A stretch of DNA of 35,247 nucleotides, from IMG/VR virus record IMGVR_UViG_2703719355_000021. The stretch is one strand, 5' to 3'. The translations under genes were made by a program, and so were the position numbers. Below the pieces are notes generated by a model. It was given only the letters and a program-made list of their open reading frames with translations. It was not told the DNA's origin and searched no databases. The stretch comes from a virus (taxonomy: Duplodnaviria > Heunggongvirae > Uroviricota > Caudoviricetes). Shown here one piece after another: positions 7,632 through 29,475 of this stretch; the stretch's first letter is position 1; each line of letters opens with the position of its first letter.

Positions 7632-7668
7632 AACCGCTAATGGTCAGATTAGCGGTTATTTTGTTTTC
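7632..7668. terminator. bidirectional intrinsic terminator between convergent U and invertase genes
   Basis: aaccgctaat-ggtcag-attagcggtt perfect 10 bp stem followed by attttgtttt; it sits between the U stop and the invertase stop. Confidence 0.6.
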
Positions 7669-8243
7669 TGACTCTTCTCTATTGTTCCGCTTGATTCTCC
7701 TGCGGGGTGGTAACGATAAATCGTCGATGTACCAATGCCGTAAATTATTGCCAGTTGTTTTCTGTCGTGACCGTTTTTAATCAGCCTTGCTATTTGCTCA
7801 TGCTGTTCTTTTGTCAGCTTCGGGCGACGTCCGCCTGTGCGCCCCCGTGCGCGCGCTGCTGCCAGTCCGGCCAGTGTACGTTCAACGATTAATTCACGTT
7901 CCATTTCAGCCAGGGCACCCATAACGTGGAAGAAAAAACGCCCCATTGGAGAAGATGTATCTATGCTGTCGGTCAGACTGCGAAAATTAATCCCTCGCTC
8001 CTGTAGTTCCCCGACGAGAGAAATCAGATGTTTCATGCTTCGCCCGAGGCGATCCAGTTTCCAGACAACCAGCGTGTCACCTTTTTGAAGGCGCTTTAAA
8101 GCGCGTTTTAATCCCGGTCGGTCTGTCTTTGTCCCGCTTAATTTATCTTCAAATATTTGTTCACATCCTGCACAAACAAGAGCGTTTCGTTGCAGGTCTG
8201 TATTCTGGTCATTTGTTGATACCCTTACATAGCCAATCAGCAC
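7656..8243 (-). CDS. Gin/Pin/Hin-family serine DNA invertase
   Basis: Near-identical in pattern to Mu Gin (LIGYVRVSTNDQNTDLQRNALVCAGCEQIFEDKLSGT...); catalytic Ser in VRVSTNDQ; C-terminal HTH. Start taken as GTG at 8243 (GGGAGA ribosome-binding site); the track begins at a TTG at 8261. Confidence 0.92.
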   Translation of the reverse strand: MLIGYVRVSTNDQNTDLQRNALVCAGCEQIFEDKLSGTKTDRPGLKRALKRLQKGDTLVVWKLDRLGRSMKHLISLVGELQERGINFRSLTDSIDTSSPMGRFFFHVMGALAEMERELIVERTLAGLAAARARGRTGGRRPKLTKEQHEQIARLIKNGHDRKQLAIIYGIGTSTIYRYHPAGESSGTIEKSQKTK

Positions 8244-8314
8244 GCTGAATCTCCCGTCCAAAAGCGTAAATCATGCCATGCAGGTCAGAAACGGCCATTA
8301 TCTAAAACCTCGGT

Positions 8315-9262
8315 TTGCAGGAAACGATAAATCAGGCTTCAGGCGCATTGCAGAAAAACCAGAACGGCGCAGATATTCCAGGAAAAGATACCTTCACAAA
8401 AAATATTGGTGCATGTCGCGCTTTTCACAGTTCTATTAGTACAGGTGCAGGGAACTGGACGACGGCACAATTGATTGAATGGCTGGATTCTCAAGGGGCA
8501 TTCAATCACCCATACTGGATGTGCAAATGTTCATGGTCATACGGCAATAATAAAATTATTACCGATACTGGCTGTGGAACTATTCATCTTGCAGGTTGCG
8601 TTATTGAGGTTATGGGTAATAAAGGTGCCATGACCATCCGTGTAACCACCCCGAGCACTTCCAGCGGTGGCGGAACTACTAATGCACAATTTACTTATAT
8701 AAACCATGGCGCAGATTACGCCCCAGGCTGGCGGCGCGACTACAGCACAAAAAACCAGCAACCTGCATTTGCTTTAGGGCAAACAGGAAGCAGGGTTGCA
8801 AATGATAAAGCTGTTGGCTGGAACTGGAATAGCGGCGTTTATGATGCAGATATCAGTGGCGCATCGACATTAATCCTCCACTTCAATATGAATGCGGGGA
8901 GTTGCCCTGCTGTACAGTTCCGCGTGAATTATAAGAACGGCGGTATCTTTTATCGTTCAGCGCGTGATGGTTATGGCTTTGAAGCTGACTGGTCAGAGTT
9001 TTACACCACAACCCGCAAACCCTCTGCGGGGGATGTTGGTGCATATACGCAGGCAGAATGTAACTCAAGGTTTATTACAGGTATTCGCCTTGGCGGTCTG
9101 TCATCTGTTCAGACATGGAATGGTCCCGGCTGGTCTGACAGGTCAGGTTATGTCGTTACGGGTTCAGTTAACGGAAACCGTGATGAATTAATTGATACAA
9201 CACAGGCAAGGCCAATTCAGTATTGCATTAATGGGACGTGGTATAACGCGGGGAGTATTTAA
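8315..9262 (+). CDS. alternative (currently unexpressed) tail-fibre C-terminal variable segment
   Basis: The ORF begins inside the crossover site with ...LQET, the same residues found in gene H at the other site ([11 protein letters not shown]). It has no start codon of its own, so it would be fused to the H constant region after inversion. Confidence 0.8.
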   Translation: MQETINQASGALQKNQNGADIPGKDTFTKNIGACRAFHSSISTGAGNWTTAQLIEWLDSQGAFNHPYWMCKCSWSYGNNKIITDTGCGTIHLAGCVIEVMGNKGAMTIRVTTPSTSSGGGTTNAQFTYINHGADYAPGWRRDYSTKNQQPAFALGQTGSRVANDKAVGWNWNSGVYDADISGASTLILHFNMNAGSCPAVQFRVNYKNGGIFYRSARDGYGFEADWSEFYTTTRKPSAGDVGAYTQAECNSRFITGIRLGGLSSVQTWNGPGWSDRSGYVVTGSVNGNRDELIDTTQARPIQYCINGTWYNAGSI

Positions 9263-9264
9263 CG

Positions 9265-9798
9265 ATGATGCACTTAAAAAACATTACTGCTGGCAACCCT
9301 AAAACAAAAGAGCAATACCAGCTAACAAAGCAATTTAACATCAAATGGCTTTATTCAGATGATGGAAAAAACTGGTATGAGGAACAAAAGAATTTCCAGC
9401 CAGACACTTTGAAAATGGTCTATGACCATAACGGCGTTATTATTTGTATTGAAAAGGATGTTTCAGCAATTAATCCAGAAGGCGCAAGCGTCGTTGAGGT
9501 TCCTGATATTACAGCAAATCGCCGGGCTGATATTTCGGGGAAATGGATGTTCAAAGATGGCGTAGTGATAAAGCGAACTTACACCGAGGAAGAGCAGAGG
9601 CAACAAGCGGAAAATGAAAAGCAAAGCCTGTTGCAACTTGTCAGGGATAAAACCCAGCTATGGGACTCACAGCTACGGCTGGGCATCATTTCCGACGAGA
9701 ATAAACAAAAATTAACCGAGTGGATGCTCTATGCGCAGAAAGTCGAATCCACAGACACCTCCAGCCTGCCAGTAACGTTTCCCGAACAACCTGAATGA
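9265..9798 (+). CDS. tail fibre assembly protein (alternative copy)
   Basis: 177 aa, N-terminus MMHLKNITAGNPKT...[13 protein letters not shown] paralogous to the minus-strand copy at 9827-10354. Confidence 0.85.
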   Translation: MMHLKNITAGNPKTKEQYQLTKQFNIKWLYSDDGKNWYEEQKNFQPDTLKMVYDHNGVIICIEKDVSAINPEGASVVEVPDITANRRADISGKWMFKDGVVIKRTYTEEEQRQQAENEKQSLLQLVRDKTQLWDSQLRLGIISDENKQKLTEWMLYAQKVESTDTSSLPVTFPEQPE

Positions 9799-9802
9799 GA
9801 CA

Positions 9803-9822
9803 AGGCCCGATATCGGGCCTTA
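9803..9822. terminator. bidirectional hairpin between the convergent fibre-assembly genes
   Basis: aaggcccgatatcgggcctt perfect palindrome followed by a T-run on the plus strand. Confidence 0.55.
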
Positions 9823-9826
9823 ATTT

Positions 9827-10354
9827 TTATTCAGGCTTTTGTGGCCATTCAGGATTTGCCGTATCCACACGGCTGACCAGAACACTGTAGCGTTCCCATG
9901 ACTCCAGTCGTGCGCGTTCCTCATCCGTCGCCATATTCAGCCTGACGGCGCGTTCCAGTGGCTGAATAACGCTTTCTGCTTCGGAAATTAACGCGGCCTT
10001 TTGTGATTCGGCCTGTTGTTGCAGTTCCTGTTCTGTATATTCCCTCTTTACTACTTTACCATCCAGAAACATCCATTTTCCGTTATTGTCTGCGCGACGA
10101 TTTGCCGTAATATCAGGAACTTCAACTATGCTTAGCCCTTCAGGATTAATAGTTGAAACGTCTTTACTGACAGCAACGATGATGTTGTTCTCATCGTAAG
10201 CAATTTTTATGGTGTCTGGCTGAAAATTCTTTTGTTCCTCATACCAGTTCTTGCCATCTTCACAAAAGAGCCATACCACGCCCGCTTTTTTAGTTAGCTG
10301 GTATTGTTCCGGTGTTTTCGGATTCCCGGCCTTAATATTTTTCAGGTGCATCAT
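9827..10354 (-). CDS. G: tail fibre assembly protein gpG (expressed orientation)
   Basis: [14 protein letters not shown]... paralogue of 9265-9798; start taken at the tandem Met 1 nt after the H stop. Confidence 0.85.
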
Positions 10355-10355
10355 C

Positions 10356-12401
10356 TTAAACACTCCCCACGTTGTACCATATTCCCCCAATCAATTTCTG
10401 AATTGGCCTTCTGGCAACAGTGTCGACAATATCATCCGCATTGCTGTTCATTGCGGCTGTTAAAACATAACCTGACGCATCGCCAAAGCCGTAGTCGCGC
10501 CATACGTTTTTAAGTTCAATGCTGCCAAGACGAATATCCCGAACGACATGATTATGCAGCCATGTGCTTAACCAGTTGTTTTCCCACACTGAACCATAAA
10601 TATCGCCACTAGACGCGACTTGCGCACCACTTCCCAGAGTGAAACCGCCATCCCTTTTAAAGATGAAGTCACCACCACCATCTGAACCGTTATTAATATG
10701 AACACCATCACCACCGTTATCTTTCCACAAAAACATACGAATACTTCCGTCTTCGTTGGCGAATGTAATGTGGTGGCGGTAATTACTTTTTAATCTAAAA
10801 TTGCTGCCATTAGATTCAATATCTTTATAAATATGTAATCCTAACTCATCAATATGTCCTATGCGCGAACCATTTGAAAAGATGCTAATAAAACCATCTC
10901 CATCTTGCCTAAATCCGGTGTCGTTATCTCCCAGAACAATGGAGTTTTCACCCAGTGCGTTATCAGTAGCACCAATAGCTAGACCTCCTTCAATTTTGGC
11001 CCCGTGGCTGACAGATATAGCACCTGTTCTCAGATTTATAGCGAATGGCCTTAATGGGCCGATATCACCGTTTTCGCCTTGTCCTTCAGCCGTCGGAATG
11101 AAATGAAGAAAATCTTCTGAACGACGGAAAATAAGACCGAAGGCATCATTGAAAATTCGCAGCGCATTCACCGTGCCAATTTTCAGTTCTCCGGTCATTT
11201 TATCACCGGAACGCTGAACGGCGTTACCAGCCTTGTTTACCGTTTCCTGCAAACCGAGGTATTCGATAACGGCGGCAACGGTCGATTTCGCAAGAATATC
11301 CCGCCCGACTTTTGTCAGAGTTGCCAAGCTGGCGACATCATTCCCCGTAAAATACGGAAACCTGTCTGCCGCAGTAGCAAGCCCGGCCAGCGCCGTCAGG
11401 GTGGCATCTTTCGGTTGCTTACCCGCAAGCGCGTTAGTCATGGTGGTCGCAAAATTCGGGTCGTTGCCCAACGCCGCAGCCAGCTCGTTTAGCGTATTCA
11501 GTGCGTCAGGCGACGAGTCCACGAGGGCAGCGATCGCAGCCATAACGAAAGCCGTGCTTGCGATTTGGGTATTATTCGTTCCCTGTCGCGCAGTTGGCGT
11601 TGTTGGCGTTCCGGTCAACGCAGGACTGTTTAAGGGCGCTTTCTTGTTCGTTTCATCCATTACCGCCTTAACCGCTTTCGATGTCGCGGCCAGTGTTTCA
11701 GACGTGCTGTTGGTTGCACTGCTGAGCTGGACTATCCCTTTTCGTGCCGTCGTGGCGTCCTGAGCGGTATATTTTCCGTTAGCCAGGTCATACGCGGCCT
11801 TAACCGCTTTCGGCGTTGCGGCCAGCGTTTCAGAATCGCTGTTAGTGGCGCTACTGAGTTGAACAAAGCCTTTTGCGGTCAGCGAGGCATCCGGGTGACG
11901 TCGTGACTGTTCATGCTCTTTCAGTTTGTCATCCACGTAATCCACTGTGGCCATCACCATGGTGTTATCCACGGTAAGCGCCACGCTGGCAGTGCTGGAT
12001 ACGGTCAGAATGGTGCGAAATGTTTGTGCACGTCCGGACCCCTCGGCAACGGTTGGCTTGTAACTTTCGGCAGTATTGCCCACCGCGATTAAATCGCCGT
12101 GCTCATCAAATACACCAATTTCCCGGATCCAGAATCCGCCCGTTTCAGGAGGAATAACCAGCTCCGCAATAATGCGGTTCTGATGTGTTGCGTCCAGGAT
12201 GACGCGATTAACAGTGTGTCGCCACACCTCATGCACCAGACGGGTCTGCTTACTGTCTGGTGTGGGCAACGTGCCGCCACCGTCGCCCACGGCCATATGA
12301 GTCAGGCGGACAGGCTTACCATCTGGCGCGGCTGCCTGAGCTAATTTTTTTGCACCCGTATCGGTGATAACGGTTTTAAATTTTCGTGTTGTGGTACTCA
12401 T
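10356..12401 (-). CDS. H: tail fibre protein gpH (constant N-terminal part plus currently joined variable C-terminal part)
   Basis: 681 aa; N-terminus [24 protein letters not shown]..., internal repeats (ATNSxSETLAATxKAVKA twice); the crossover site lies in-frame at about 11244-11269. Confidence 0.9.
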
Positions 12402-20812: not shown

Positions 20813-22564
20813 ATGATTCAGGACGCTTTTGTGCGCCAGCGTGCGCGGCAACTTTACTGGCAGGGTTATCCGCCCGCAGAAATATCACGTCTGATGGGAA
20901 TAAACCCGAACACGATTTATGCGTGGAAAAAACGTGACCAGTGGGATGAAACGCCACCCGTGCAGCGTGTCACGCAGTCCATCGATGCGCGCCTCATCCA
21001 GCTTACTGAAAAACAGAACAAAACAGGCGGTGACTTTAAGGAAATAGACCTGCTGACCCGGCAGCTTAAAAAACTGCATGATGGCCAGCCGGATGCGACG
21101 GCCACAGGAAAGAAAGGCCGGGCGAAAAAACTCAAAAATCATTTCACGCCGGAACAGATTGCCGCACTGCGGGAAAAAATCATCAGCAGGCTGGAGTGGC
21201 ATCAGCGGGGCTGGTTTGACTCCCTGACCCTTTGCAGGGAAGCCGGGATACGTAACAGGATGATCCTGAAATCCCGACAGATTGGGGCGACCTGGTATTT
21301 TGCACAGGAAGCACTGCTGATGGCGCTGCGTGACGATGTGGCGCAACCTTACCAGCGTAACCAGATTTTTTTGTCTGCGTCGCGTCGTCAGGCGTTCCAG
21401 TTTAAAAGCATTATTCAGAAGGCCGCGGCTGAAGTTGATGTGGAGCTGAAAGGGGGCGATAAAATCATCCTCTCCAACGGCGCAGAGCTGCATTTTCTCG
21501 GCACTTCTGCTGCGTCGGCACAGTCCTATACGGGCAATTTTTATTTTGATGAATTTTTCTGGGTCAGTCGCTTTGCTGAACTGCGCAAGGTGGCTGGCGC
21601 TATGGCAACCCTCAGCGGACTGCGGCGCACCTACTTCTCCACGCCATCCACCGAAACGCACGAGGCATACGCCTACTGGAACGGCGACCGCTGGAACGAG
21701 AAAAAGGCCTCGCATAAACGCCAGCGTTTTTCTGTGGGCTGGGAAACGCTGCATAACGGGCTTATCTGCCCTGACCGGACGTGGCGGCAAATTGTCACGC
21801 TGGAAGATGTGGTTAATCACGGCTGGAAACACACCGATATTGATGAAATTCGTGATGAAAACACCGAAGACGAGTTCCGCAATCTCTATATGTGTGAGTT
21901 TGTCCGCGAAGGGGAATCGGCATTTAACCTGAATATCCTGATTGGCTGCGGTGTTGACGGATACGACGACTGGAAAGACTGGAAACCTTTTGCTCCCCGC
22001 CCGATGGGGAATCGTCCGGTATGGATTGGGTATGACGCAAACGGCAGCAGTGGCAACGGCGACAGCGGCGCTGTGTCCGTGGTGGTTCCTCCGGCTGTTC
22101 CTGGTGGCCGTTTTCGAACGGTGGAGACGCGACGCGTTCAGGGGCTGGAGTTTGAAGAACAGGCCAGAGTCATTGAAGAGTTCACGTATCGCTACAACGT
22201 GGAACACATCGGCATTGATGTGACGGGTGGGAACGGGGAGGCTGTTTATCAGATAGTGAAACGGTTTTTCCCTGCTGCTATTCCGTACACCTTCACGCTG
22301 TCATCAAAACGGTCGCTGGTACTGAAAATGCTGCAAATAATGCGTGCCGGGCGGTGGGAATACGATCGCGCCGAACGCGAGCTGGTCGCGGCCTTTAACG
22401 CCGTGCGTAAGGTGAAAACACCGGGCGGCTTTATCACTTACGAAACGGACCGCGCGAGGGGGATCAGCCACGGCGACCTTGCGTGGGCAACCATGCTTGC
22501 TGTCATTAACGAACCGATTGGCGGCGAAGGAGAAAACGAGCGTTTCACGGTTATGGAGTTCTGA
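20813..22564 (+). CDS. P: terminase ATPase (large) subunit gpP
   Basis: 583 aa; divergent from O as in P2; Walker-type region (ILKSRQIGATWYF); GGGGGAG ribosome-binding site. Confidence 0.95.
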   Translation: MIQDAFVRQRARQLYWQGYPPAEISRLMGINPNTIYAWKKRDQWDETPPVQRVTQSIDARLIQLTEKQNKTGGDFKEIDLLTRQLKKLHDGQPDATATGKKGRAKKLKNHFTPEQIAALREKIISRLEWHQRGWFDSLTLCREAGIRNRMILKSRQIGATWYFAQEALLMALRDDVAQPYQRNQIFLSASRRQAFQFKSIIQKAAAEVDVELKGGDKIILSNGAELHFLGTSAASAQSYTGNFYFDEFFWVSRFAELRKVAGAMATLSGLRRTYFSTPSTETHEAYAYWNGDRWNEKKASHKRQRFSVGWETLHNGLICPDRTWRQIVTLEDVVNHGWKHTDIDEIRDENTEDEFRNLYMCEFVREGESAFNLNILIGCGVDGYDDWKDWKPFAPRPMGNRPVWIGYDANGSSGNGDSGAVSVVVPPAVPGGRFRTVETRRVQGLEFEEQARVIEEFTYRYNVEHIGIDVTGGNGEAVYQIVKRFFPAAIPYTFTLSSKRSLVLKMLQIMRAGRWEYDRAERELVAAFNAVRKVKTPGGFITYETDRARGISHGDLAWATMLAVINEPIGGEGENERFTVMEF

Positions 22565-23610
22565 TGAGCAGAAAAAATAAAAAAGTGCGCATGAGTTCAC
22601 GCATTGATCTCGCTGATGCGCTCAGGAAAGAATCATCGCTCAGTGCATTCACATTTGATGGTCCTTATCGCCTGACCGGGCATGACCTGCTGGACAATAT
22701 GTACTGTGCTGATAACGGGCGGTGGTATGAAACCCCGGTGGACTGGTACGGTCTGGCAAGAGCCGCCCGGCAAACGTCCTGGCATCAGTCTGCGCTTTAC
22801 TTTAAGCGCAATGTATTGCTCGGTTGCTACATCCCGCACCCGCTGCTTTCCCGGCAGGATTTCTCGGCGCTGGCGCTGGACTGGTTTGTGTTCGGTAACG
22901 CATTCCTTGAGCTTCGAAGCAATATGCTCGGCGAACCGCTAAAATTACGGCACGCCCTGGCGAAATACATGCGACGCGGAAGCGATCTTGAATCATGGTG
23001 GTATGTGCAGGATGGCAAGGATGCGTTTCAGTTTCGCCCAGGCAAAGTGTGCCACCTGATGAATCCTGACATTAACCAGGAAATCTACGGCATGCCGGAA
23101 TATCTCGGCGCATTACTCTCGGCCAGCCTGTCTCATTCGGCGGACATGTTCAGAAAACTGTATTACGACAACGGATCCCACGCCGGGTGCATCATCTACA
23201 TCGGTGCAGCGCAGGTAAACCGCGAAAGCATGGACTCCCTGAAAGAAACGCTACAGGGTGCGCGTGGTGGTGGTGCGTTTAAAAACGTGCTCATTCATGC
23301 GCCCAACGGGGGCAAAGAGGGGGTGCAAATTTTGCCGTTCCAGCAGATCACCGCAAAGGATGAGTTCATGAATGTTAAGGCGGCATCCCGTGATGATGTG
23401 CTGGCTGCGCACCGCGTTCCGCCGCAACTGATGGGGGCGATGCCGGGTGAAAAAAGTGCGTTTGGTGATGTGGAGAAGGCCGCGCGGGTTTACGCAATTA
23501 ACGAGCTGATGCCCGTCATGGAGGCCATGAAGCACATCAATGACTGGCTTGGCGAAGAGGTGATCCGCTTTAACCCTTACGCACTGTTAGACATCCAGCC
23601 CACATCCTGA
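22564..23610 (+). CDS. Q: portal protein gpQ
   Basis: 348 aa immediately after P with an ATGA-type overlap; P2 gpQ-like. Confidence 0.95.
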   Translation: MSRKNKKVRMSSRIDLADALRKESSLSAFTFDGPYRLTGHDLLDNMYCADNGRWYETPVDWYGLARAARQTSWHQSALYFKRNVLLGCYIPHPLLSRQDFSALALDWFVFGNAFLELRSNMLGEPLKLRHALAKYMRRGSDLESWWYVQDGKDAFQFRPGKVCHLMNPDINQEIYGMPEYLGALLSASLSHSADMFRKLYYDNGSHAGCIIYIGAAQVNRESMDSLKETLQGARGGGAFKNVLIHAPNGGKEGVQILPFQQITAKDEFMNVKAASRDDVLAAHRVPPQLMGAMPGEKSAFGDVEKAARVYAINELMPVMEAMKHINDWLGEEVIRFNPYALLDIQPTS

Positions 23611-23636
23611 CGCGCTTCGCTTGTCTGCTGCTTCGC

Positions 23637-23661
23637 CGGGGCATAAAAAATTTATGCCCCG
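23637..23661. terminator. perfect 11 bp palindromic hairpin downstream of portal gene Q
   Basis: cggggcataaa-aaa-tttatgccccg about 27 bp after the Q stop; no clear T-run, so it may be a terminator or a protein-binding site. Confidence 0.45.
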
Positions 23662-24034
23662 ACTCTCCAGCTCCTGTATCAATCAGATAATTTCACGACG
23701 CTTTTCTGCTTATTGCCATCATCGGCGGTCAGACTCTTACGCAATCCCACCGCATTGACTGCATGTTCTCGCCGCCTCAGTGCGATTTTGACGGCCTTAC
23801 CTTTCACCCCATCAAATCAGAATCCCTCACGTATTCTTCACGCTCAGCGTGAGAAATACAGCCATTCTGTTGTGTCGCTGCGACATCGTTCAGGGGATGC
23901 TATTTACCCCCTGAAACGCGGGCTGTTCCCCCGTCACCTGCGCGCAGAAAAAGCGCGTTTTTTTGTGCACGCACGGATCCTTGACGGATCCAGCCGCCAC
24001 GCGGGCCGGAAGGGCAAAAAGTCGTTCAAAAAAA

Positions 24035-24061
24035 TTGTGCAAATTTGTGCACTATTGTGCA
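24035..24061. repeat. three TTGTGCA direct repeats at exact 10 bp phasing
   Basis: attgtgcaa / atttgtgcac / tattgtgcag; a fourth copy about 70 bp upstream (about 23963); lies in the Q-to-accessory gap where cos is expected. Confidence 0.5.
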
Positions 24062-24101
24062 GCAGGGCGATGCGCGATTATCGCCCTGGTTTGAGAGGAA
24101 A

Positions 24102-24641
24102 TCAGGTGTTCTTTTTACCTTCTGTCAGTGGGCATAACCATCCACTATTTACATCACTTAGCTGATGCGTTCTTTCCTCGTGCTTCTCCTGCCACAATGC
24201 TTTTCCGCCAGCCTTTATGATGGCTCTTTCAACATCCCGCTCGTATCGCAAGGGCTGAAATACGTCATTAATGAAATATTCGCTTATGTCCGGAAGCGAT
24301 ACTGCAAAATTATTTGTTTGTTGCGCCGTCCTGCTATGCAGCAAAGCGGCATACTTTAATGCGTCCTGTGCTTTCTGGAATTTAAGTGCATAGTCAGTGG
24401 CGATTTTTTCCAGTTCAGCGATGCGTTTTTTTGCTGTTTCCAGTTCATCCAGCAGTGCCAGCATGTCTTCCGGTCCAGCCAGAATTCTGAAGGTGTTGAT
24501 CGCGTCAATATCCACACCGTAATCTTTAAGTTCCTGTTCGCTTAACAAATCATCATCAACTGGCAATATTAACAGGCGTTCCATTGCCGGAATTGCACGT
24601 TCTGCTGCCATTTGTAGTGCCTGATAGTCAATTTTGCTCAC
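24102..24641 (-). CDS. Ead/Ea22-like family protein (paralogue 2)
   Basis: MSKIDYQALQMAAERA... N-terminus and ALLDELETAKKRIAELE coiled-coil motif typical of Ea22-like proteins; start overlaps the stop of the upstream paralogue (ATGA). Confidence 0.8.
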   Translation of the reverse strand: MSKIDYQALQMAAERAIPAMERLLILPVDDDLLSEQELKDYGVDIDAINTFRILAGPEDMLALLDELETAKKRIAELEKIATDYALKFQKAQDALKYAALLHSRTAQQTNNFAVSLPDISEYFINDVFQPLRYERDVERAIIKAGGKALWQEKHEERTHQLSDVNSGWLCPLTEGKKNT

Positions 24642-25237
24642 TGGCTGCCTCCTTTGCGAAGCTCTGCGGCGAAATATACAGCTGCGGAAACAATAGCTGC
24701 ATGTCGGTATTCATCATCAGAAAATAAAGAATCTCCCTTAAGTGCATTGACGATACTCTGATGATTTTTTGCCAGCATCTCCACGCCCTGCGCCCGTACT
24801 TCAGCCAGAAAAGCGTCGGTGGCTGGGGTTTGTGGCATTCCTCCGTCTGTTGCGCAGATATACGCGTCAGATATTTCATCCTGCTCTCCATCAAATACAT
24901 AGCAACTGCCCCTGATAAACAGCTTCATTGCGGCATTCTCCGCTGCCAGCTCCGTGAAATTAGCCTCCAGCTCTGCAATGCGTTTGCTTTGGGCTTCTCG
25001 TTCATCCAACAGAGCCTGCACTACTTCAGGGTTGAAAGCTGCGATATAACGAGCGTTGTTCTCTGCGTTTTTCTGTTCGTCGAATCCAGGCCAGTCGACA
25101 ATATCTCCGTGATGATTATCTCCTGGTGTGTGCACGGCGTACGTGCCGTATTTGCCCGGCGAAATAAATGCGACCCATTCGCCCTGTGTTGCCTGTTTTG
25201 CTAACTCACGCAGTGCCTGATAGTTGATTTCGCTCAT
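24638..25237 (-). CDS. Ead/Ea22-like family protein (paralogue 1)
   Basis: MSEINYQALRELAKQATQGEW... and ALLDEREAQSKRIAELE; AAGGAG ribosome-binding site. Confidence 0.8.
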   Translation of the reverse strand: MSEINYQALRELAKQATQGEWVAFISPGKYGTYAVHTPGDNHHGDIVDWPGFDEQKNAENNARYIAAFNPEVVQALLDEREAQSKRIAELEANFTELAAENAAMKLFIRGSCYVFDGEQDEISDAYICATDGGMPQTPATDAFLAEVRAQGVEMLAKNHQSIVNALKGDSLFSDDEYRHAAIVSAAVYFAAELRKGGSQ

Positions 25238-25300
25238 TAAGTCGGTCTCCTTGTTTATGTTCTGAGGTGGAGATCAGGGCGAACTCGCCCTGACGTTGTG

Positions 25301-25612
25301 TTATTCGGGAAATAACGCCCGGATATTTCCGGCCATCTGACTGGTTATCTGTGCGGTTGGTGCTGGCTGTGGCACGGGGCGTTCTGTCCTGGTTTGTGTC
25401 ACTGATAACGCCTCGCCATCAGCCCATGCAGCCAGTCGGTAAGCCTCTGCCGGATTCATTTTCAGAAGTGCCAGCCCGGCCAGAAAAGCCACGCGTTGGC
25501 TGCTTTTGCGGGCTTCTGGTGTAAGGCTGTCCAGCCAGGCGCATGCTTCGCTTTCGTTCTTGACGGCGGCGGGCTTCAGATAGAAACTTATCCGTCTGGT
25601 TGGTGTCGTCAT
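25301..25612 (-). CDS. parR: ParR-like centromere-binding partition adaptor
   Basis: Internal start MTTPTRRISFYLKPAAV...LDSLTPEARKSSQRVAFLAGLALL...IRALFPE matches recalled plasmid R1 ParR (RRTIAFKLNPDV...LDSIPQGERSRLNRAALTAGLALY...LRSLFPK); AAGGAG ribosome-binding site embedded in the parM 3' end. Confidence 0.75.
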   Translation of the reverse strand: MTTPTRRISFYLKPAAVKNESEACAWLDSLTPEARKSSQRVAFLAGLALLKMNPAEAYRLAAWADGEALSVTQTRTERPVPQPAPTAQITSQMAGNIRALFPE

Positions 25613-25616
25613 TGGT

Positions 25617-26576
25617 TTACTCCTTGTCCATTGCGTACAGCCCATTAACCAGAGCAAACTGTGGCACCCCGTCCGCGATGAAAGTCGCATTAACTCCGCA
25701 GGCTTCGCGGATAGCGGGTGCCACAATCTCCGCCCCGCCACCGACAACCATCACCCGCCCGTAACCCGAAAAACCCGCCAGTGCGCGGATTACGCGTTGT
25801 TTCAGTGTTTCTTCCTTTTCACGAATAACCGCCATCAGGCTGGCGTAATGCGCGTCATTGTGGATGTGCTGGCGCAGCCAGGCTTCATCATGGCGATGTT
25901 CGATAATGGTATTGGCGATGTGGTGACTGGTACGCATACCGTTAGTGGCCATCACCGACAGTACGGCATCGGCCATCAGGGAAACGCCTACGTGTGGATC
26001 GCAAAACACCTGGCTGATACCTGCCAGTTGTCCCTGAACCTTTGCCACATCCAGCGTGGTTCCGCCTAAATCCACAATCAGCAGGGATTCAAACGGACTC
26101 ATGTCAGCCAGTGCTTTAAAACCAGCCGGTATGGATTCAGGCATAACCCGTACGTTACGGATAGTGAATGCTTTTCCGTTCTGGTACGCCACCGGGCGCA
26201 TGACGTTTGCTTTTTTGCGGTTGATGTTGGCCATGTCCGGCTGTGCGTTTGTGTCGAAATACTCGCTCAGTGGCAGGGTGACAACCACATCCACCTCCTG
26301 TGGCGTGATGCCTGATTTGACCAGCGCGTGATGAATGGCAATGACATTCACATCGCTGTACTGGTATTGCGTGTCGGTCGTCTGGACAAAGCGATCGCTG
26401 ACCGGATCAAAACCATAGCGCACGCCATCAAGCATGTAGTTCGCGGGCTGCGTGCCACCGAACGGCGCAGACCATTCCGACTTGAAGCTGTTCGGGCTGA
26501 TGGCGTTGCGGCGTTCGCCGTTCTCAGTCCATGCCAGCTTGATGTTGGTGGAGCCGTCGTCGATACAAATTCTCAT
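25617..26576 (-). CDS. parM: ParM/StbA-family actin-like segregation ATPase
   Basis: MRICIDDGSTNIKLAW...ISPNSFKSEW...YQYSDVNVIAIHHAL...VDVVVTLPL closely parallels R1 ParM (MLVFIDDGSTNIKLQW...ISPNSFKREW...WQYSDVNVVAVHHAL...); AAGGAAAA ribosome-binding site. Confidence 0.9.
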   Translation of the reverse strand: MRICIDDGSTNIKLAWTENGERRNAISPNSFKSEWSAPFGGTQPANYMLDGVRYGFDPVSDRFVQTTDTQYQYSDVNVIAIHHALVKSGITPQEVDVVVTLPLSEYFDTNAQPDMANINRKKANVMRPVAYQNGKAFTIRNVRVMPESIPAGFKALADMSPFESLLIVDLGGTTLDVAKVQGQLAGISQVFCDPHVGVSLMADAVLSVMATNGMRTSHHIANTIIEHRHDEAWLRQHIHNDAHYASLMAVIREKEETLKQRVIRALAGFSGYGRVMVVGGGAEIVAPAIREACGVNATFIADGVPQFALVNGLYAMDKE

Positions 26577-26605
26577 CTCGATTTTCCTTATGTTGATTAA
26601 TTAAT

Positions 26606-26720
26606 CGTTTACGGGATTCTGAAATCCCGTTTTTGCCTGTTTTGTGCGCGCTTCACATATCGCTGCGCGTTTTTTGCTCATTTACGGGATTTGTGAATCC
26701 CGTTTCTGTCTGTTTTTTGT
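26606..26720. repeat. two ~40 bp direct repeats, each with a palindrome (acgggatt-N5-aatcccgt), upstream of parM: candidate parC centromere/operator
   Basis: cgtttacgggattctgaaatcccgtttttgcctgtttt (about 26606) and catttacgggatttgtgaatcccgtttctgtctgtttt (about 26679), 73 bp apart; the second lies within the last codons of gene A. Confidence 0.5.
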
Positions 26721-29475
26721 TTCCACTGGTCAGGCCACCCCGCAGCAGGTCTGCTTTGCGGCGGGCGCGTTCAGTGGTTTCACTGATTCTCTGTGCGTGC
26801 TCTGCGTCGCGGATGGCGCGCAGCATGTCAGAAAGCACGGTAACGGGTGTTTTCATGGTGTTCTGGTCCTGCTGAAGTGTGGATGCCAGGCGTGCGGCGG
26901 CTTCAGGGTCTGATGCCCCCAGCTGTGCCAGATAGCTGGCGACCGGGTTATGGCGGATCTCCGTGCTGCTTACGCCATGATTACGGCTCAGGCGCTGCCA
27001 GAGCTGCGTGATTCGGCTGTCCGGGCGGGTATCCGGTTTGCGTACAATTTCAAATCCCTGCGGTGCAATGATGCTGCCGTCAACGTACAGACTGCCGCCC
27101 CGTAACAGGTGCTGCATCTGTTGTTCACCGATATGCAGGCCGAGAGATTCAGCAGACTCTCGCCATTCTTTAGCGAGTAATTCGTGGTTATCAGGCAAAG
27201 GCCGCTGCTGTTTGCGGCTCTGTGTCCAGCTCTGCATTTCATCACTGCTGTTTTTTGCCTGTTTGTCACGAAGCGAACGCATCAGCGCCCGGCGTTCGTG
27301 CCGTTTCAGTGAGCGCATCCATTCGTTCACTTCAACGCCGTCAGGGAGCTGCGGCCACGGTGCTGGCCGTTCTTCCGGCTGTTCTGTCCCGTTGTTGTCC
27401 GTTTCCTGTACACGGGGACAGTTATTGCCACGAGTCCAAGGGGCGGCAGGGCCGCCCTGAAGGTCAAAACCATTTTCGCGGGCGCTGTCTTCCGCTTCCG
27501 GTTTGCGTCTTACCAGCTTCCAGTTATCCGGATGCGTGCACACACGGGAGGATTCCCCGATGAGTGGTGACCAGATCCCGTAAATCTGTACGCTCTGTTC
27601 GCCGTAATCGTTCAGCTCATCGGCGAGGTCGTAGGCGGTGCGAATCAGGTAGTCTTTGCGTGGAACAAGTACGCCGCCCTGTTTCTCTATGTAGGTGGCA
27701 AAACATCCGGCATCAGCGGCGGCAAGAACCGCATCCATTGCGTCATCCTTCAGCCGTTGCGGGCCTTCCGGGTTGCGTGCCATCTGGCTGGCAAGGCGGC
27801 GCAGTTCACGCCATACCTGGCGGGAGGGGATGCCAAAGAACTGGAACTGGCGGACCCGGTGAAGGCGCGCCCAGCCGATGGCGCGTTCCACGCTCTCGGC
27901 CATTGATTTTCCGGTTTCGTGGTCAACGCGTGGCTTGCCCGTTTTCGGGTCGATGCCATCCACGGCGCGGCTGTCCAGGTTTTTCCCGATGTAGGTGGCA
28001 ATGTAGCTGGTTGGCGTGCCTTTTGAGCCGTCTACATACTCCGCCTTAAAGCGCGGAGTTATGTCATCGCCCAGCTCGTGACGATCTTCCTGAATGGCAA
28101 TATCGCGGGTGTGGGACACAATGGTGTCGATTTCTTCCGGATGAGCAAAGACCATCATATGCCAGTGCACGGTGCCGTCATGGTGAGGCTCCACCGTGCG
28201 GATGCCATACCAGCGCAGGCCGTCGCGGTTCAGTTTCTTGCGGACCGCCGCAAAAAACGTGTTAACCAGGTAATCGCTGGAGTCGCGCATGGTGGCCCCG
28301 TTCCATTTGGGGTTCGGATGACCGTTCTCCGTTGTTGCGTGGTATTTTGACGGGCAGGTGACGGTCAGAAACACCGCTCTGTCGCCACGGGCTTCGGCCA
28401 GAAGTTCCAGTCCCTTCATGGTGGCCATCATTTCTGCTTTACGGTGAACCGGGTTACTTACTCCCGCGTAATACACCGTCTCGAGATCAATCGTGAACCC
28501 GTCTTCATTTTCCAGCATGAAACTTTTCAGGAAATCGCGTGTTTTCTCGCGCTGTGCGCGAAACTCGCTTAACGCGTCCTGGCTCAGATAGGGTGATGTT
28601 TTTCTGGAAACCAGACAGGCGGCGCGGAGTTGTTCTTCTCTCCACTCGCAACGTAACAGCCACAGTTTGCGTTTCCACCATTCCGCACAGGTCAGGCGAA
28701 GGATTGCGCCCGGCAGCAGCTCCGTGTCCGGTTCGTTCCTCCGGTCTTTATCTGTTGTCAGTGCGTCATAATGTGGAGGCATGATGTGCAGGTGTAACGC
28801 CATGCGGGCCAGCATCTGATACGCCTTCAGCGTTACATCCATGGTCAGTTCGCCATCGGTCGCGCCAAAGCCATCGCAGAGTTTTTCGAAGGTGCTGCTG
28901 AACATCGCCGCCGTCATGGTGGCCAGCGTCTGTATCTGGTGTTTGTTGAGCTGCGGCAGGTAAAGCAAATCGTCCAGGCGTTCGCGTCCGGCAAGGGAGC
29001 GATAACCCGGTGTCAGCCAGTGTCCGTCAGTGCGATCCAGACGTTCGAATATTTTGCGCAGGGTTCCGCGTGCATAGCGTTCCGCCTGCCAGCTCTTTTT
29101 GCCTTTCCGGCGATCGGCTTCCTGTTTTTTGCGCAGGAAGGAGAGGTGGCGAATAAGCGGATCGCGCAGATAGGACGGCAGCAGGCGCAGCGAGGCCATG
29201 GCTTCATCCACCGCGCCGCGTGCCTGTTTTCTGGCGTCTCCTGCCAGTGTGATGGTTTTGTCCTGTTTTTCCTGTGCGTCCAGGCTTTTATTAATCAGGT
29301 TGCCCAGCGGCGTGGCGGAGAACGCCGCATCAGCCATTTCCTTGCGGCGCTCGTTCTCTGCCCGGTAGGCATCCAGCCAGGAGGAAAGCGCGGATTCAGG
29401 AGCGGGGATCCCCGTTCCTTCACGCCCCACTGCGTGGCGCGGTTGTTGCCAGTCCCTGATGTACTCTGCCGTCAT
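26653..29475 (-). CDS. A: replication initiation protein gpA (rolling-circle endonuclease family) with extended C-terminal region
   Basis: 940 aa; HHDGTVHWHMMVF-type HUH-like motif and P2/186 A-like central region; last gene of the early operon; about 180 aa longer than P2 A. Confidence 0.88.
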   Translation of the reverse strand: MTAEYIRDWQQPRHAVGREGTGIPAPESALSSWLDAYRAENERRKEMADAAFSATPLGNLINKSLDAQEKQDKTITLAGDARKQARGAVDEAMASLRLLPSYLRDPLIRHLSFLRKKQEADRRKGKKSWQAERYARGTLRKIFERLDRTDGHWLTPGYRSLAGRERLDDLLYLPQLNKHQIQTLATMTAAMFSSTFEKLCDGFGATDGELTMDVTLKAYQMLARMALHLHIMPPHYDALTTDKDRRNEPDTELLPGAILRLTCAEWWKRKLWLLRCEWREEQLRAACLVSRKTSPYLSQDALSEFRAQREKTRDFLKSFMLENEDGFTIDLETVYYAGVSNPVHRKAEMMATMKGLELLAEARGDRAVFLTVTCPSKYHATTENGHPNPKWNGATMRDSSDYLVNTFFAAVRKKLNRDGLRWYGIRTVEPHHDGTVHWHMMVFAHPEEIDTIVSHTRDIAIQEDRHELGDDITPRFKAEYVDGSKGTPTSYIATYIGKNLDSRAVDGIDPKTGKPRVDHETGKSMAESVERAIGWARLHRVRQFQFFGIPSRQVWRELRRLASQMARNPEGPQRLKDDAMDAVLAAADAGCFATYIEKQGGVLVPRKDYLIRTAYDLADELNDYGEQSVQIYGIWSPLIGESSRVCTHPDNWKLVRRKPEAEDSARENGFDLQGGPAAPWTRGNNCPRVQETDNNGTEQPEERPAPWPQLPDGVEVNEWMRSLKRHERRALMRSLRDKQAKNSSDEMQSWTQSRKQQRPLPDNHELLAKEWRESAESLGLHIGEQQMQHLLRGGSLYVDGSIIAPQGFEIVRKPDTRPDSRITQLWQRLSRNHGVSSTEIRHNPVASYLAQLGASDPEAAARLASTLQQDQNTMKTPVTVLSDMLRAIRDAEHAQRISETTERARRKADLLRGGLTSGNKKQTETGFTNPVNEQKTRSDM

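Follow-up and report, generated by a model that had tools for sequence, protein, structure and literature searches.

We analyzed the 35,247-nucleotide Caudoviricetes record IMGVR_UViG_2703719355_000021 from IMG/VR (hereafter the window), and within it the interval at positions 24102-26720, which lies between replication gene A and the cos region and encodes a ParM actin-like ATPase, a ParR adaptor and two Ea22-like proteins. We consider it likely that this interval joins a fixed type II ParMRC-like segregation module, comprising a candidate centromere/operator, parM and parR, to a downstream cargo slot of the gpA-gpQ hotspot that here holds the two Ea22-like genes. The locus is already known: the hotspot has been published with its partition system noted (Rousset et al. 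2022, PMC9122126), the arrangement is tabulated, and near-identical copies are annotated in RefSeq. Although the locus itself is ordinary, it raises the question of what leads an integrating P2-type lineage with rolling-circle replication to retain a complete actin-like segregation module.

Conservation of parM and parR in P88-like phages

Judged by its sequence, the whole window is a P88-like (Xuanwuvirus, Peduoviridae) P2-type prophage. Except in the Ea22 part, the region shares 95-98% identity with Escherichia phage P88 and other Xuanwuvirus phages, and an integrase gene stands at the window end. Its best full-length match is a prophage adjoining pheA in E. coli CFSAN018748 (98.1% identity over 3110 bases), in which the Ea22 pair is 100% identical. 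All four genes are co-oriented with gene A on the minus strand and are tightly packed, with gaps of 76 bp between A and parM and 63 bp between parR and the first Ea22-like gene (Ea22b); 491 bp of non-coding DNA separate the second (Ea22a) from the end of Q. Pfam and PHROGs agree on every assignment and so bear out the positions, orientation and identities given in the initial annotation, which had been made from the sequence alone. Its placement of the genes in the P2 hotspot is likewise upheld by the A and Q flanks and by the linear genome record of Xuanwuvirus P884B11, whose termini map to 24016|24017; the four genes therefore do lie between A and cos. The P2 cos sequence itself has no match in the window at up to 3 mismatches.

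The ParM protein matches PF06406 (E 1e-81) and PF21523 (E 1e-69) over its full length and aligns end to end with ParM of plasmid R1 (PDB 1mwk, E 1.5e-92). The DDGSTNIK, DLGGTTLD and GGGAE motifs are aligned, and the phosphate-binding and adenosine motifs of R1 ParM are conserved. ParR belongs to PF10784 (E 1.4e-23), the Pfam family of the R1/R100 adaptor StbB, and to phrog_2515 (E 4e-56). Its start, taken from the P88 and RefSeq annotation, is Met46 of a 148-aa mechanical open reading frame (ORF) and lies 4 nt past the parM stop. The protein has the N-terminal RRISFYLKP strand and the C-terminal LFP..E motif common to plasmid ParRs, lacks about 45 linker residues, and is only 23-27% identical to the nearest of them. 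Searches of ParR against PDB sequences returned chance-level matches only, and NCBIfam gave no match to ParR or the Ea22-like proteins and far sub-threshold matches to ParM. On the protein side, the pair thus has the predicted make-up of a type II ParMRC system, a ParM ATPase with ParR encoded directly downstream.

Of 5426 complete E. coli genomes, 1307 (~24%) carry parM-parR DNA at 90% identity or higher, and 1453 of its 1455 places are chromosomal. A search seeded with gene A, without the repeats, found the P88-type gene at 80% coverage or more in 1321 genomes versus 1278 for parMR. Gene A and parMR thus go together nearly always, a co-occurrence that rests on genome counts and not on an intersection of the two sets. 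A scan of the genome collection with ParM gave only 3 loci, and IMG/VR and exact-protein look-ups took its place. The 80 loci from IMG/VR came from a ParM query, which makes the conservation of parM among them partly a product of construction. Independent support therefore comes from the gene-A-seeded count and from synteny across genera. The order A-parM-parR-cargo-portal recurs in P2-type prophages of Plesiomonas, Hafnia and Serratia, whose ParMs are 62, 62 and 58% identical to the one studied here; in each, gene A, parM, parR and a few variable genes are followed by the portal and terminase genes.

In every fetched locus that holds them, the 3' end of A, the A-parM spacer and parM are 89-99% identical, and parR is 87-100% identical in a majority allele class and ~72-80% in a second. 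parM is intact in all 86 related loci, and the parR copies are intact as well. The parM dN/dS of 0.054 indicates stronger purifying selection than on the phage's replication gene A (0.14); the values for parR and the portal gene are 0.24 and 0.014. Plasmid ParMs, searched by tblastn in at least 5000 plasmid records, are at most ~53% identical to the phage protein, save in six records that contain P88-like prophage DNA, which argues against recent plasmid exchange. The phage collection yielded ParM homologues in the P88 group and in one other phage, D6 (91 kb; StbA-type ParM, 48% identical), which is a P1-like plasmid prophage. Synteny at 58-62% ParM identity across genera, set beside the lower identity of all plasmid ParMs, indicates a module that is old, phage-specific here and not a recent plasmid import.

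These comparisons bear directly on the initial annotation, which had read all four genes as one accessory cargo island, a plasmid-derived ParMRC with Ea22 genes serving exclusion, defence or maintenance. The location is indeed a known variable hotspot, P2 itself lacks these genes, and the locus table of Rousset et al. counts StbA and Plasmid_stab_B as hotspot content. However, parMR is invariant in all close relatives examined while the 1.2 kb downstream varies, it keeps its place beside gene A in distant genera, its nearest plasmid ParM is ~53% identical, and none of the four proteins matches a defence family. The cargo description suits the Ea22 pair and is largely refuted for parMR by the initial annotation's own criterion of constant carriage in a conserved backbone; as an account of all four genes we regard it as improbable. 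Our comparisons instead identify parM-parR as lineage-fixed backbone of P88-like and related P2-type phages.

We also observed at least two allele classes of ParR, ~53% identical to each other: a 103-aa 'NPAEAYRL' form and a 104-aa 'DPAFAYWL' form found in many O157:H7 prophages. Their first ~17 residues are identical and the rest diverges (25301-25557, codons 19-103, in the window), which places a recombination boundary inside parR.

Table 1. Features of the A-to-Q interval, in window coordinates.
Feature	Positions	Strand	Details
Portal gene Q	22564-23610	+	downstream flank of hotspot; preceded by terminase gene P
Probable cos cleavage region (inferred)	23998-24017		ends of linear record NC_049391.1 map to 24016 and 24017
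Terminator-like hairpin	24030-24052	-	GTGCACAAATTTGCAC and T7 run; in flank conserved in all relatives, just past slot
Variable cargo slot, cos-proximal hotspot	24062-25272		~1.2 kb; break-points 24061/24062 and 25272/25273
Ead/Ea22-like protein a (Ea22a)	24102-24641	-	179 aa; GTG start; 4-nt overlap with b; PF13935, 79 bits
Ead/Ea22-like protein b (Ea22b)	24638-25237	-	199 aa; PF13935, 90 bits; phrog_368 over full length
parR/stbB, ribbon-helix-helix adaptor	25301-25612	-	103 aa; PF10784, phrog_2515
parM, actin-like segregation ATPase	25617-26576	-	319 aa; Pfam, PHROGs, R1 ParM alignment
Candidate parC site 2 and operator	26605-26646	-	second 42-nt repeat; palindrome at 26611-26630; A-parM spacer, 73 bp from site 1
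Replication gene A	26653-29475	-	940 aa; upstream flank of hotspot; PF05840 Phage_GPA, E 1.4e-131
Candidate parC site 1	26678-26719	-	42-nt repeat; palindrome ACGGGATT-N4-AATCCCGT at 26684-26703; within last ~20 codons of A

A candidate centromere upstream of parM

Two 42-nt direct repeats upstream of parM, both inside the upper limit of the interval (26720), each contain a perfect 8-4-8 palindrome that has no other match in the window, even at 3 mismatches. The palindrome of site 2 ends 34 bp before the parM ATG; after it come an AT-rich block that is conserved, TTAATCAA, and a Shine-Dalgarno sequence. Pairs of GGG-N10-CCC sites stand upstream of parM in the E. coli, Plesiomonas and Hafnia lineages at spacings of 73, 72 and 73 bp, against a background density of 0.2-0.5 such sites per kb. 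The Plesiomonas and Hafnia spacers are otherwise unalignable, yet the pair lies at the same distance from parM. Based on this pattern, a detail new in this analysis, we propose the two GGGA-N8-TCCC sites as a candidate ParMRC centromere/operator that is not of the R1 type.

Other roles for the palindromes can be envisaged, namely RNA hairpins or terminators, or replication elements such as A-binding or origin sites, which would leave parMR without a functional parC. On the plus strand each hairpin is followed by a T-rich tract and has a terminator-like score, but there is no plus-strand gene near enough to need a terminator, no U-tract on the sense strand, and no match in an Rfam scan of 23000-27200 at E <= 1. 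Among natural E. coli variants, wobble pairing is kept on one strand at one site and on the opposite strand at the other, with no consistent single-strand pairing, and in Plesiomonas conservation is confined to the outer GGG and CCC triplets and the inner arms are non-complementary; both observations argue for a protein-binding DNA site, and we judged the RNA hairpin less likely on these grounds. In favor of these other roles, site 1 lies inside gene A, and plasmid relatives rely on ~10-11-bp direct iterons, in two clusters, and not on a two-site layout of the phage kind. In Hafnia, however, where A and parM are parted by an additional ORF, the sites accompany parM and lie 420-490 bp past the A end, which argues against a role tied to gene A. 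On balance these alternatives to a centromere seem unlikely to us.

Two further candidates were set aside. The iteron-like look of the T-rich flank of the repeats reflects low-complexity similarity in the wrong orientation, and the conserved AATCAA block lacks the TTR part of the IHF consensus and was rejected as an IHF site.

No minus-strand terminator was seen between A and parM. Most simply, parMR and the co-oriented cargo would be transcribed with the early operon, possibly with the addition of a ParR-controlled promoter. The GTGCACAAATTTGCAC hairpin beyond the slot is probably the end of this A-parMR-cargo transcription unit.

The variable slot and its Ea22-like cargo

The slot is bounded by comparison with P88 and with a 34.5-kb circular record (L086, NZ_CP148288.1), with which homology stops exactly at 24061 and 25273. 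The probable cos lies ~45 bp from the nearer boundary. Between the end of parR and 24061, the 59 related loci with a complete slot carry 33 unrelated clusters. Relatives hold, among others, an AAA_15 ATPase with an OLD-type TOPRIM protein, an M78 peptidase/HTH protein with a PIN protein, DUF3800, DUF4760, a Fic/Doc protein, an AAA ATPase with an S8 peptidase, or a ClpX-zinc-finger protein. The two-gene Ea22 version is found at 80% query coverage or more in only 6-7 of the 5426 complete E. coli genomes. By these comparisons the Ea22-like pair is genuine swappable cargo of the gpA-gpQ hotspot. For mining of defence systems in the P88-type lineage, the search can concentrate on the 1.2 kb that separate parR from cos.

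Both cargo proteins score well above the PF13935 gathering cutoff of 27 bits (78.7 for Ea22a and 90.2 for Ea22b). They have only their N-terminal ~98 residues in common (36% identity, E 1e-7) and their C-terminal halves are unrelated; the term paralogues, used in the initial annotation, is too strong. Homologue alignments describe the Ea22-like family as a mosaic of interchangeable N-terminal, coiled-coil and C-terminal modules with thousands of clusters. A protein identical to Ea22a occurs on 73 contigs. The combination with a segregation module is less unusual than first supposed: of the related loci whose slot is complete, about one in three has an Ea22-like gene after parR, and the arrangement is listed by Rousset et al. 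(2022). The commonest single-Ea22 cargo is a zinc-finger version whose C-terminal 120 residues are the same module as in Ea22a.

The suggestion that the Ea22-like genes serve defence found no evidence, and PADLOC at E <= 0.01 assigned none of the four proteins to a defence family. Searches of both Ea22-like proteins against PDB chains (E <= 1) gave chance-level matches only, with the C-terminal domain of the lambda Ea22 type not matched. AlphaFold2 models, too poor to use for Ea22b (pLDDT 56) and of moderate quality for Ea22a (pLDDT 69), predict long helices at residues 57-105 and 70-111 that would form a coiled coil. A Foldseek search of the Ea22a model against PDB and BFVD found nothing better than E 0.3 and hence no fold-based function.

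Several small features were seen around the slot. The 8-mer CAGGGCGA/TCGCCCTG occurs six times in the window, five of them in the cargo region, where the copies form two hairpins (24063-24088 and 25274-25293; a further copy is at 25179-25186) that bracket the Ea22 cassette; the same hairpin pair flanks single-Ea22 cargo in relatives. The hairpins could mark transcript ends or supply microhomology for cassette exchange. On the portal side of cos, some relatives carry an insertion of ~615-640 bp with a 174-aa hypothetical ORF right after the portal stop (locus L002, 19386-20000, equivalent to window position 23610/23611; also L005, L016, L039, L057, L058, L069, L075 and L076). This second small variable spot is empty in the window.

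Elsewhere in the window, a serine invertase gene (Resolvase and HTH_7 domains; 7656-8261, minus strand) adjoins an alternative tail-fibre C-terminal ORF (8315-9262), and two opposed tail-fibre assembly genes lie nearby (9265-9798, plus strand; 9827-10390, minus strand). The low-GC stretch 7656-10390 resembles an invertible host-range segment of the Gin/Cin type. In the closest prophage, L002, an acetyltransferase gene takes its place. Another P88-like prophage comes from a record labelled Vagococcus sp. (L004, NZ_JBQPOM010000071.1); its ParM is 97% identical to the E. coli one, and the label is probably due to contamination or a mislabelled assembly.

Proposed function and comparison with known systems

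We propose that ParR dimers would bind the two candidate sites, probably also repressing parM transcription, and that ParM-ATP filaments captured by the ParR-parC complexes would push circular copies of the phage genome apart. Segregation of this kind would act while the phage is extrachromosomal, either after infection and before integration, or after induction, when rolling-circle replication gives monomeric circles. P2 replicates by a rolling circle that depends on gene A and is driven from the repressed early operon. We favor action on transient circles because P88-like prophages are almost always integrated and keep their integrase, because P2-type replication depends on that repressed operon, and because the AlpAC system of prophage CGP3 provides a precedent (PMC4446434). 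The Ea22-like genes would be co-transcribed early accessory genes, more likely modulators of the lysis-lysogeny decision, as lambda Ea22 is, than defence genes expressed in the prophage.

Besides the sampling of the IMG/VR loci and the counting of co-occurrence described above, several points weigh against this proposal. The site sequences vary among E. coli relatives, and the Serratia repeat layout differs. A sigma-70 scan of the minus strand upstream of parM found no consensus promoter. The function of the Ea22-like proteins is extrapolated from lambda. The searched literature holds no experiment on the P88-type parMR module, which is annotated there only; the P88 paper and a Citrobacter prophage paper contain nothing functional on it.

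Rousset et al. (2022) suggested that ParMRC enables such phages to be stably maintained as plasmid prophages instead of integrating. The partition gene set is complete for a type II system, D6 has a related StbA-type ParM, and L086, from a cat E. coli isolate, is a whole P88-like phage with its integrase deposited as a 34,461-bp circular 'plasmid'. In the same project, a human isolate carries a 100% identical phage in its chromosome. The circular record may represent a true episome, or the assembler may have picked up excised or induced DNA. Type II systems are carried by, and stabilise, an extrachromosomal replicon; here nearly every place in complete E. coli genomes is chromosomal, and there is one phage-sized circular record. 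The integrase is kept in all phages examined, L086 included. Moreover, rolling-circle replication from a repressed operon is ill suited to copy-controlled plasmid lysogeny. We hold plasmid persistence to be unlikely, though the L086 record leaves it some weight.

Partition systems are also known for centromere-based incompatibility, and the hotspot neighbourhood of relatives is rich in anti-mobile-element functions. The module might on this basis be an exclusion device in which ParR or parC disturbs the partition of rival P88-like phages or of ParMRC plasmids. We found no data in support, and cross-reaction with plasmids is unlikely given the low identity of ParR to plasmid ParRs and the different site architecture; of the alternatives considered here, this one is the most improbable by our estimate.

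A more specific form of our proposal, which we put forward tentatively and think rather less probable than the general one, is that the P88-like ParMRC is a machine for positioning phage DNA, with a non-canonical two-site centromere, and not a device for plasmid maintenance. It would have been retained since monomeric circles need spreading or inheritance before integration or packaging, and its loss would lower burst size or lysogenisation. With the candidate two-site centromere in hand and inducible phages such as P88 available, the role of the module is directly testable.

Compared with P88 (NC_026014), the window is 95-99% identical in nucleotide sequence over gene A, parM, parR, the cos region and Q, and differs in the slot, where P88 has a ClpX-zinc-finger protein and a small hypothetical protein in place of the two Ea22-like genes. 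The old/tin locus of P2, the gpA-gpQ hotspot (PMC9122126), likewise lies between gene A and the portal gene, by cos, and holds highly variable cargo, with known defence-type genes in relatives; here the variable part is limited to the 1.2 kb past parR, with parMR fixed, and the cargo has no recognisable defence domain.

Ea22 has been described as prolysogenic in lambda (PMC7093339, PMC10834534), and lambda and Stx phage alone are known for that activity (PMC7093339). The pair in the window resembles lambda Ea22, encoded in the exo-xis region, in its PF13935 match, its succession of an N-terminal module, a long coiled coil and a C-terminal module, and its early-operon position in a temperate phage. 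It differs in sitting in a P2-type and not a lambdoid genome, in comprising two tandem genes with distinct C-terminal modules, and in C-terminal halves that match no solved structure by sequence, that of lambda Ea22 included.

The R1/R100 ParMRC systems (StbA/StbB) share with the phage module the order sites-parM-parR, in which the phage sites are candidates. In contrast to them, the phage module sits in an integrating phage and not on a plasmid, and a divergence of ~47% separates its ParM clade from all plasmid ParMs. The phage ParR, at 103 aa, is shorter than the nearest plasmid ParRs (140-147 aa) and lacks their central linker, and the candidate centromere consists of two GGG-N10-CCC sites 73 bp apart and not of clusters of direct iterons.

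The best precedent is AlpAC/alpS of the Corynebacterium prophage CGP3 (PMC4446434, PMC5539076), in which an integrated prophage likewise encodes an actin-like filament protein and a DNA-binding adaptor with cognate sites. AlpAC is needed for efficient phage DNA replication (PMC4446434), which it supports after induction. Host and phage type are unrelated to those studied here, and the likeness is one of functional analogy only. If the positioning role is correct, about a quarter of E. coli genomes would carry, in the P88-like module, an enterobacterial counterpart of AlpAC.

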